From a bacterium (GTDB taxonomy: Bacteria; Cyanobacteriota; Vampirovibrionia; Gastranaerophilales; JAILCC01), in the NCBI GenBank assembly GCA_024680555.1, contig JAILCC010000018.1, forward strand, positions 49,174 through 113,173: a stretch of 64,000 bases of DNA, given 5' to 3'. Shown here in pieces: positions 30,859 through 32,232 of the stretch. The notes beneath the pieces are model-generated. The model worked only from the letters and a program-made list of their open reading frames with translations, made no database searches and had not been told where the DNA came from. Made by a program: the position numbers and the translations under genes. The first letter of the stretch is position 1. The number at the start of each line of letters is the position of its first letter.

Positions 30859-31668
30859 CTATGAACCAATGTTTTCTACTTGTTTTTGGTCGCCTTCAAT
30901 TTCGTCTTTCAGCATTTTTCTGACGATATCACCTTGTGTATCGAGCATTTTTGCAACGGTTTCAATGTTTCTAACCTTGTTTGTCATAACAGAGTCGGCA
31001 TTTGCAAGAATTCTGCCGCTAATATTTTGATATCCGGCGAGAACGGCACTTCCGTATCCTTGCATTATGTTGCCGGCAAGGGTTGCACCCAAACCGTAAA
31101 CACCCATATATGGGCTCAATGCAGTTGCGATACCGCCTACACCTGAAACAAATCCTGCTAAAGGAATAACAAAGTTTGTTCCTGTTCCTCCAAATCCCGC
31201 ATACATACCTGCAGCGGCAGAAGCGGCATTAGGAAGCCAGTCCACCATTGATGCAGCATAACCTGTTTCAACGCCGTCTGTTATAGAAGCGGCAAGACCT
31301 GTCAGATTGCCTAAATCTGCGGCATAACCGGTAGAAAAACCGTTATAACTTGATAAGTTTGATAAACCAAAAGCTGATGTTCCGCTAGAATAAACTGCGT
31401 TTCCTCCGCTTACTGCGGTGGAATATGATGTGCCCGGAACATTTACGGAATAACCGTACAATGGTGCATAAGCACTCGGAGCAATAAGTCTTGAAACGTT
31501 TATAATCCAGTTTGCAACGCCTTCAAAACCGCTGCCGGAATATGTTGAACCGTTTACCGAAATGTCGCGAATTTGGTCATAAAGTTGAAACAATTCAGCC
31601 TTGGCATCAGAACTTGCCGTGCCGAACTTATTTGCAATAACTAAATAACTGTCGTTTTTGTAAGCCAT
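30859..31668 (-). CDS. Hypothetical Gly/Ser/Ala/Tyr-rich protein with glycine-zipper-like hydrophobic segment and helical termini, 269 aa
   Basis: ORF sits 15 nt downstream of the 182-aa ORF on the same strand. The composition is very atypical for this AT-rich genome. No recognisable domain. Confidence 0.6.
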   Translation of the reverse strand: MAYKNDSYLVIANKFGTASSDAKAELFQLYDQIRDISVNGSTYSGSGFEGVANWIINVSRLIAPSAYAPLYGYSVNVPGTSYSTAVSGGNAVYSSGTSAFGLSNLSSYNGFSTGYAADLGNLTGLAASITDGVETGYAASMVDWLPNAASAAAGMYAGFGGTGTNFVIPLAGFVSGVGGIATALSPYMGVYGLGATLAGNIMQGYGSAVLAGYQNISGRILANADSVMTNKVRNIETVAKMLDTQGDIVRKMLKDEIEGDQKQVENIGS

Positions 31669-31683
31669 TTTTTACTCCGTTAA

Positions 31684-32232
31684 TTATGATTGGAATGTCT
31701 TGAATACATTTTCAATATTTTTGTCAATAACTTTCTTGACGCTTTCAAGTTCTGTTACGATGGTTTCTTGCTCTGTATCAAGTTGACGCAGTTGCAATTC
31801 TAGTACCTGATCTTTTTCGTGAATTTCTTGAGTTTTCACATTAATTTTATCCATTGCGTTTTCATATTCTAATTGTTGCGCATTATATTGGTCCATAGCA
31901 GCGTCGTATGCTGCGTTTGCATCATAACCGTTCTCTACGTATGCAGTCCATATAGTTAAATCGTATTTATATTCGGAACTGTCCTTGCCGCCTTTATAAT
32001 CATCTGGGTTTGGACCGGGAGGATCATTCTTTTCCCATTTTGCACAATTTTGTTTAATTCCATATAGGGTAGGTACAACGGGCGCTTCAATTTTTAACAT
32101 TTCACGGAAAAGACCGGACTGTTCGTTAGCAAGATTGGTTCTTGCTTGGTTAATTTGTTGACCTTCAAATTCGACGTTAGTTTGTCTTGCCGTCAAATAG
32201 AGATATCTTGCTTGGCTTGCTGCTATACCCAT
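31684..32232 (-). CDS. Hypothetical coiled-coil protein, 182 aa
   Basis: AGGAG RBS 8 nt upstream. Helical heptad-like N- and C-termini flank a Pro/Gly/Tyr/Asp-rich middle. Confidence 0.6.
   Translation of the reverse strand: MGIAASQARYLYLTARQTNVEFEGQQINQARTNLANEQSGLFREMLKIEAPVVPTLYGIKQNCAKWEKNDPPGPNPDDYKGGKDSSEYKYDLTIWTAYVENGYDANAAYDAAMDQYNAQQLEYENAMDKINVKTQEIHEKDQVLELQLRQLDTEQETIVTELESVKKVIDKNIENVFKTFQS

Follow-up and report, generated by a model that had tools for sequence, protein, structure and literature searches.

We analysed a 64,000-nucleotide stretch (the window) of contig JAILCC010000018.1 (assembly GCA_024680555.1), from a bacterium of the Gastranaerophilales. An earlier note, made from the letters alone, had singled out two adjacent genes in it, here called A and B, as an orphan two-gene operon. 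Both genes are real and strongly constrained. They are not orphans, and in other genomes they are not just a pair: the ancestral unit is A (one or two copies)-B-C-A', a module that is specific to the class Vampirovibrionia, occurs in nearly all Gastranaerophilales, and encodes four undescribed protein families. Judged by motif, this module is clearly the main carrier of a sigma-28-type promoter in the DNA that we sampled. We tentatively favour a model in which A, A', and B leave the cell independently of Sec, through the flagellar type III export apparatus, and assemble on the outside, with C as a cytoplasmic chaperone or regulator.

A conserved gene module of the Vampirovibrionia

Gene A (31684-32232, minus strand) encodes a helical-hairpin protein of 182 amino acids (aa), and gene B (30859-31668, minus strand) a Gly/Ala/Ser/Tyr-rich protein of 269 aa with helical termini. 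The proteins are identical to K6A44_05655 and K6A44_05650, respectively, of an uncultured-bacterium metagenome-assembled genome, both entered at NCBI as "hypothetical protein". The two open reading frames (ORFs) lie on the same strand 15 nucleotides (nt) apart, as first described, and the peptide strings quoted for them are present in the sequences. A GGAG ribosome-binding site stands 8-9 nt from the ATG of both genes: for B at 31675-31678, within the spacer (31669-31683, minus strand), and for A as AGGAG at 32241-32245 (minus strand). The 15-nt spacer with its GGAG suggests that A and B are co-transcribed and that their translation is initiated independently.

We scanned 80 species loci and 10 further contigs with hidden Markov models. 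A word index yielded 133 homologues of A, and a profile search enlarged the family to 3,338 representative clusters at 50% identity (524 with E<1e-30; length range 109-625 aa). For B we found 689 homologues, and the gene was present in at least 586 species-representative genomes. The homologues of both were labelled Gastranaerophilales, Melainabacteria, or Vampirovibrio. In 79 of the 80 species loci, gene A directly preceded B, and the remaining locus was a contig end; the two genes thus co-occur in related genomes, a point that the earlier note had left for checking.

The pair is usually part of a longer unit. The order A-A-B-C-A' was found in 34 of the 80 loci and A-B-C-A' in 28, with two more carrying an extra reversed A; 11 loci had A-B. 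Rarer arrangements were an inverted C-A' (two loci), A-B-A, A-B-C, and B alone (one each). A Vampirovibrio sp. and other divergent contigs showed the same A-B-C-A' order. C is a basic helical protein of ~90 aa, and A' (107 aa) is a hairpin-sized distant paralogue of A; tandem A paralogues are common. In the window and its closest relatives (loci L009-L011), A-B stands alone, and neither C nor A' was found in the window. By locus tags, at least one other genome of this kind has an A' copy distant from B.

We looked for conserved neighbours among ~90 loci and found no flagellar, pilus, or secretion genes, only housekeeping genes. No neighbour family outside the module recurred in more than 27 of 84 loci. 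Because its flanks are unrelated housekeeping genes, the module appears to be a self-contained unit. In the Spyradomonas group (L001 3970-5115), the first A gene is preceded at ~600 bp by a gene that joins a response-regulator receiver to a ParA/MinD-type ATPase and has a faint TadZ_N match; a 410-aa coiled-coil Ser-rich protein is encoded upstream of this fusion and a 127-aa protein after it. Most other loci do not keep this arrangement. Many loci carry a small ORF of ~75 aa (M..RTY.R......IVNFYYN...) in the interval between B and C, for example L085 ~10860-11090, L043 ~10860-11080, and L008 11297-11524. This ORF overlaps a palindrome, ATTGTAAAnTTTTATTACAAT, and contains the sigma-28-type promoter of C; it may be a fifth gene or a regulatory region.

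Evolutionary constraint

We estimated the ratio of nonsynonymous to synonymous divergence (dN/dS) from species pairs with saturated synonymous divergence (dS ~1). The ratio was ~0.01 for B, 0.01-0.03 for B together with the termini of A, and 0.04-0.14 for the insert between those termini. Where the B proteins of a pair share 95-98% identity, identity is 92% in the A termini and 63% (minimum 38%) in the insert. The insert thus evolves 5-10 times faster than the termini yet remains constrained, which indicates a functional, fast-evolving domain. Helical termini around a variable centre, the layout first noticed in the window, are therefore a property of the whole A family. The suggestion that the unusual composition of B is under selection agrees with its very low ratio and with a mean column identity of 58% over 66 orthologues.

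Promoters of the module

We searched 1.49 Mb of Gastranaerophilales DNA with the sigma-28-type motif TAAAG[TA][TA]-N10-14-[GT][CT]CGA[TA][TA]A and found 55 sites, against 3.45 expected from Markov-1 simulations. About 50 of the 55 sit directly 5' of A or C. These elements, of the GCCGATAA type, precede the first A gene at ~40 nt in 36 of 77 loci, essentially the two-A-copy clade, and in most loci the C-A' pair has an element of its own 130-175 nt upstream. Since the loci are phylogenetically related, the ~50 sites reflect conservation rather than independent events.

A leader of ~110 nt between the sigma-28-type promoter and C is conserved (TTAAGACATGTTAAG...GGCAAT...TGTTTTTATATACATGTAGGTCTAAAGTGTAAGGAG-ATG; L084 ~10880-10992, L069 ~10880-11010, L001 ~9000-9175). 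In the two-A-copy clade it contains a hairpin just 5' of the Shine-Dalgarno sequence with apparent compensatory changes (GTCC/GGAC, GTCCG/CGGGC, GGTC/GACC), which could be a translational control element.

A different promoter serves the A-B operon of the window. We found no sigma-28 site 5' of it; a sigma-70-type promoter lies at 32350-32377 (minus strand), with TTGACA (32377-32372), a 16-nt spacer, and TAAAAA (32355-32350), and the pattern TTGAC[AT]-N16-TAnAnn is kept 5' of A in 41 orthologous loci. The link to sigma-28 and the flagellum that the earlier note drew thus applies to orthologous operons, whose sigma-28-type motifs tie them to the late flagellar regulon, and not to the operon on which it was based. 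The distance from this promoter to the ATG is 117 nt in the window versus 31-33 nt in L009-L011. An insertion of ~85 nt in the 5' untranslated region (UTR) of A (~32240-32325, minus strand), absent from L009-L011 and present once in the window, accounts for the shift from ~32 to 117 nt. It contains two perfect short hairpins (32281-32314, minus strand): GTCTGC-AGGC-GCAGAC (32314-32299) and TCTCTC-CCCAA-GAGAGA (32297-32281). Rfam gave no match for the A 5' UTR, the C leader, or the repeats downstream of B described below.

Perfect sigma-28 promoters, TAAAGTTTT-N11-TGCCGATAA, do occur elsewhere in the window, three times against 0.18 expected by chance, and in each case an ORF that is small or unknown and has no Pfam match follows 31-42 nt downstream. 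One (29812-29838, plus strand) precedes the gene of a Gln-rich 180-aa protein (29869-30411, plus strand) that is convergent to B; this neighbour had been called sigma-28-driven from the outset, its promoter is a textbook one, and its homologue in L009 is likewise sigma-28-driven. The others precede a 57-aa ORF (promoter 16140-16167, ORF 15925-16098, both minus strand) and a 47-aa ORF (promoter 45948-45974, ORF 46009-46152, both plus strand). By their motifs, these sites point to a regulon of undescribed proteins in this lineage. In other loci, sigma-28-type elements also drive an 820-aa Asn-rich protein (L034 1116-3578) and a 272-aa Ser/Thr-rich helical protein (L030 3653-4471). Both are without a Pfam match or an obvious signal peptide. 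They are further candidates, either as members of this regulon or as cargo of the same route.

Protein A

AlphaFold2, given 65 homologues, modelled A as a helical hairpin with a mean predicted local distance difference test (pLDDT) score of 92.3, in line with the helical ends read from its sequence at first. Its long N-terminal helix (H3-47) and its C-terminal helix of 77 residues (H105-181) are joined by a small helical insert. Residues 1-47 (32092-32232, minus strand) form the nearly invariant first helix, MGIAASQARYLxLTARxxNVEFxGQQINQARTxLANE; residues 48-104 (31921-32091, minus strand) are the hairpin-tip insert, which is short in this lineage; and residues 105-182 (31687-31920, minus strand) make up the long C-terminal helix with its conserved end, LELQLRQLDTEQ...TELESVKKVIDKNIExVFKTFQ.

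The ~40 first and ~45 last residues are nearly invariant across orthologues and paralogues. In 65 sequences, paralogues included, the invariant positions are A5, Q7, R9, T14, E21, G24, Q25, N28, Q29, and R31 near the N-terminus and D141, L144, E145, L148, T153, and E161 in the C-terminal helix. In helix 1, Q7, T14, E21, and N28 follow one another at an exact spacing of seven residues, and L13/V20/I27/L34/L41 form a hydrophobic stripe. The conserved face, polar residues included, covers more than half of the circumference of this helix, which fits burial among several partners in a multi-subunit packing.

The tip insert ranges from 0 to ~490 aa in the family. A' and the smallest A proteins (107-109 aa) share a conserved GTDxDPDSP turn; the hairpin fold was modelled for A only. 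On the strength of this model, A is a two-helix hairpin, and A' is probably another; their terminal helices appear to be built for oligomerisation, with a variability pattern like that of flagellin.

The insert is rich in Thr (12%), Ser (8.6%), Tyr (8%), Asn (7.4%), and Asp, and poor in Cys (0.5%), His (0.7%), Arg (1.7%), and Met. In this respect the A insert and the core of B (below) resemble typical exported bacterial proteins. We found no N-terminal hydrophobic signal-like segment in A or B when the sequences were read directly, with no signal-peptide predictor run, which agrees with the earlier statement that a Sec signal is missing.

Such a protein may also stay inside the cell. A, A', and B could be a coiled-coil scaffold in the cytoplasm or associated with the inner membrane, co-regulated with motility and never exported: a polar landmark, an element that positions or anchors the flagellar or chemotaxis machinery, or a division or shape element, with the A insert either tolerated or serving as an adaptor domain. 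A signal peptide is missing, the stable long hairpin is like that of many cytoplasmic coiled coils, and the A model, compared with PDB structures by Foldseek, matched nothing but generic hairpins (such as Smc, SH3BP5, the p85 iSH2 domain, and HP0958), all with E>0.1. The near-universal, core-genome-like distribution, the very low dN/dS, the housekeeping neighbours, and the sufficiency of an insert-free 109-aa A in some lineages would all suit a scaffold, and non-exported proteins exist in the sigma-28 regulons of other bacteria. However, neither the insert nor the B core has a composition that is common in the cytosol: ~150 aa are almost without charge, and Thr, Ser, Asn, and Tyr abound. A large, fast-evolving insert of variable length and tandem paralogues are more like surface proteins, and a convincing transmembrane helix is not seen in most B orthologues. 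We regard a scaffold as rather unlikely, though it deserves serious attention.

Protein B

B has a conserved helical N-terminal region followed by a core with the motifs NIPGTSY, SAFG, APYMG, AGNLMQG, and AAYQN. Family-wide, this core of ~150 aa consists of 21% Gly, 15% Ala, and 12% Ser, has 2.9% charged residues, and lacks Cys and His; the small-residue centre and helical ends reported for the window protein are thus general features. An amphipathic C-terminal helix, NADxxxTNKVRNIETVxKMLDTQGDIVKKMLK, is conserved at residues 216-269 (30862-31023, minus strand). The AlphaFold2 model of B is unreliable (pLDDT 42), and the C-terminal helix alone reaches 65-72. Comparison of A with B by hhalign gave a weak likeness of their C-terminal helices (E 0.014, probability 3%), on which we claim no paralogy.

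The most hydrophobic stretch (residues ~160-195; 31084-31191, minus strand) is conserved and carries small-xxx-small motifs (NFVIPLAGFVSGVGGIATALSPYMGVYGLGATLAG). The maximum Kyte-Doolittle value over 19 residues is 1.87 at residue 175 here versus 1.37-1.52 in orthologues, and these lower values make a classical transmembrane helix doubtful. Of the glycine zipper proposed in the earlier note, the conserved small-residue repeats therefore stand, while membrane insertion has found little backing. The runs of (G/A/S)xxx(G/A/S) in a hydrophobic context do resemble Gly-zipper_Omp, Gly-zipper_YMGG, and Rick_17kDa_Anti proteins. Unlike these, B has no signal peptide and no lipobox, is mostly below the transmembrane threshold, and matched no glycine-zipper Pfam model, either in the window protein or in 65 orthologues (0/66). 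RebB proteins of R-bodies (PF11747), small helical self-assemblers encoded in paralogue clusters, offer another comparison. A faint match to RebB was found in two of 66 B orthologues (best E 0.042, far below the Pfam threshold) and was absent from the other 64, window B included.

A hydrophobic centre between helices also raises the possibility of a toxin. A and B might form a two-component alpha-helical pore-former like XaxAB/YaxAB or the ClyA family, in which the Gly-rich hydrophobic segment of B would enter a target membrane and A, as a soluble helical partner, would nucleate the pore. Two adjacent genes for long-helix proteins, small-xxx-small motifs in the central hydrophobic stretch of B, and the missing Sec signals of both fit this idea. 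Toxins are exported through the flagellar apparatus in Vibrio cholerae (MakA) and Bacillus thuringiensis (Hbl). Predation by Vampirovibrio (PMC4451040) would also suit a toxin. On the other hand, HBL, ClyA, and XaxA-type families gave no Pfam or PDB-sequence match, and most B orthologues fall short of the hydrophobicity threshold. Toxin genes tend to be patchily distributed and mobile, whereas this module is near-universal, vertically inherited, held at dN/dS ~0.01, and absent from viral contigs; nor would a toxin account for the C and A' genes that constantly accompany the pair. A pore-forming toxin therefore seems improbable to us.

Comparison with known families

We scanned A, B, C, A', the long A paralogues, and 66 B orthologues against Pfam, NCBIfam, PHROGs, and PADLOC and obtained only sub-threshold coiled-coil noise. 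Neither A nor B has a Pfam or NCBIfam match, in agreement with the failure to recognise a domain in them at the outset. PDB sequence and profile searches with three alignments (A1, A2, and A3) and two long paralogues gave no meaningful match, and none of A, B, C, and A' matched a PDB sequence above noise. We found no published description of the A, B, C, or A' proteins, and no described family matches any of them; the suspicion that the module is new has thus held up. We rejected a phage origin: PHROG matches were noise (all E>0.02, function-unknown), and IMG/VR viral contigs contained no relatives of the module. PADLOC had no match for A, B, or C.

The closest architectural likeness of A is to flagellin, FlgK, and FlgL. 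All pair conserved helical termini with a hypervariable centre of varied length, occur as tandem paralogues, and lack a Sec signal; in many genomes they also have sigma-28 promoters, which for A means a sigma-28-type motif. They differ from A in that there is no sequence or profile similarity, and in that a minimal A is a 109-aa hairpin without a D1-like domain. Flagellin_N/C, Flg_bb_rod, FliD, FlgM, FliS, and FlgN profiles gave no Pfam or NCBIfam match, even at E<1. An hhalign comparison of A or A' with an alignment of Hag and FliC gave a probability of at most 0.5%; that of A' with PrgI/MxiH/YscF gave 0.2%, and PF09392 of Pfam did not match. With both values below 1%, homology to flagellins, to which the earlier note had likened the layout, or to type III needles is not supported.

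We also rejected A as the flagellin of this lineage, because canonical flagellins exist: the canonical genes that a flagellum requires, flagellins included, have been reported from flagellated Melainabacteria, and MEL.A1, which has an incomplete flagellum (PMC3787301), nevertheless carries the module (locus L084). A broader version of this idea is that the four proteins are extremely divergent, unrecognised orthologues of late flagellar components: the hook-associated FlgK/FlgL, the cap FliD, FlgM, or the chaperones FliS/FlgN. The sigma-28-type promoters and the helical termini around a variable centre would agree with it, as would C, which is sigma-28-driven and of FlgM size. "Incomplete" flagellar gene sets have been described in many Gastranaerophilales, with a complete set in three of nine genomes (PMC4040986). 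The profile and hhalign results above argue against this, as do the canonical genes of flagellated relatives (PMC3787301) and the module of MEL.A1. Furthermore, B is near-universal versus complete flagellar sets in ~25% of Gastranaerophilales (bioRxiv 10.64898/2026.04.24.720558), and an A of 109 aa is too small for a hook-associated protein. Divergent flagellar parts are, in our judgement, among the least probable explanations.

Gene order suggested another comparison. The LEE4 operon of enteropathogenic Escherichia coli has the order espA-espD-espB-cesD2-escF. Set beside A-B-C-A', A corresponds to the hairpin filament protein EspA; B to EspD/EspB or YopD, which have a central hydrophobic segment and terminal helices; C to a chaperone; and A' (~100 aa, with its Asp/Pro-rich GTDxDPDSP turn) to a needle protein with a P-x-x-P turn. 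The moderate hydrophobicity of B also matches the description of type III-exported membrane proteins. This is an architectural parallel and not homology, and it could be a coincidence; A' differs from injectisome needles in the hhalign comparison above, and to our knowledge there are no injectisome genes in this lineage. About 75% of Gastranaerophilales are without a complete flagellum, and those with an incomplete one keep flhB, fliI, and flgG, for which the authors postulated a secretion role (bioRxiv 10.64898/2026.04.24.720558). In these non-motile bacteria, the module could encode the extracellular parts or substrates of a secretion device derived from the flagellum, with A' as a needle-like hairpin, A as a filament or tip protein that exposes its variable domain, B as a membrane-active protein of translocator type, and C as the chaperone of the others. 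We consider this a long shot.

Other features of the window

The window has a G+C content of ~37%. Housekeeping genes surround A-B: groES/groEL, valS, a gene for a bifunctional-nuclease-domain protein, the L1/L11/NusG ribosomal cluster, a MacAB-TolC-like efflux system, and rsmH-ftsI-murE.

Two 115-nt repeats (30471-30585 and 30712-30826), 99% identical and 241 nt apart, lie directly downstream of the B stop. They belong to a dispersed, relatively GC-rich family with a partial copy at 29671-29698 and related copies at 13198-13412 and 46207-46451. The repeats create spurious ORFs (e.g., 30437-30814) and contain GTCTGC...GCAGAC inverted repeats; the same GTCTGC/GCAGAC arms occur in the hairpin at 32314-32299 in the A 5' UTR. 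Their structure suggests that the family is possibly an element like a miniature inverted-repeat transposable element (MITE) or a repetitive extragenic palindromic (REP) sequence.

A possible function in flagellar export

The reading that we favour, while rating it below an even chance, is that the module is part of the late (sigma-28) flagellar regulon and that A, A', and B, which are without Sec signals, exit via the flagellar type III export apparatus. The nearly invariant terminal helices of A and A' would be an oligomerisation core, and A, A', and B would co-assemble outside the cell via their terminal helices. A would then display a fast-evolving tip domain with many Thr, Ser, Asn, and Tyr residues, B would be a membrane-active or interface-active partner, and C would stay in the cytoplasm as a chaperone or regulator. 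The unit of the window would have been reduced to A-B and shifted to a sigma-70-type promoter. Sigma-28 dependence in vivo, export and the path it takes, assembly outside the cell, and what B and C do are all inferred from the features described above.

There are precedents for such cargo. Campylobacter FlaC, FspA, and the Cia proteins, as well as V. cholerae MakA, are non-flagellar proteins exported by the flagellar apparatus. As would be the case for the proteins of the module, they are sigma-28-controlled, Sec-independent, and encoded away from flagellar clusters. They differ in being species-specific accessory factors, whereas the module is class-wide and held at dN/dS ~0.01, and Pfam and NCBIfam scans found no sequence similarity between the two.

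Several observations weigh against export. The A gene of the window, like A in 41 other loci, is driven by a promoter that is sigma-70-type by sequence, and where sigma-28 is assigned, the assignment is motif-based. No flagellar gene adjoins the module in any of ~90 loci, and in Pfam, NCBIfam, and hhalign comparisons none of the proteins showed homology to a known type III substrate. From residue 3 on, A is predicted to start with a well-ordered helix, unlike the usual type III signal, which is disordered. The low Arg and high Asn and Tyr contents that make the proteins look exported may derive partly from the AT-rich genome. Finally, the A insert did not show positive selection, as of a surface antigen: with dS saturated, its dN/dS of 0.04-0.14 indicates purifying selection overall.

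Gastranaerophilales are widespread uncultured gut bacteria, most of which retain remnant flagellar machinery. A module that is near-universal, extremely constrained, and preceded by late-gene promoters in most genomes is the most obvious candidate for the cargo or outer structure of this remnant apparatus. If A, A', and B are indeed exported, the vague idea of a secretion role for the remnant genes becomes testable with named proteins, and a new family would join the few hairpin proteins that build bacterial surface filaments. Should the module instead equip a secretion device, an injectisome-like apparatus would have arisen from the flagellum, independently of the known non-flagellar type III secretion systems, in a widespread human-gut lineage. 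If the proteins are cytoplasmic, they would constitute a new class-specific coiled-coil system under sigma-28 control. Either way, because no Pfam or NCBIfam family exists for them, the four families merit family definitions.

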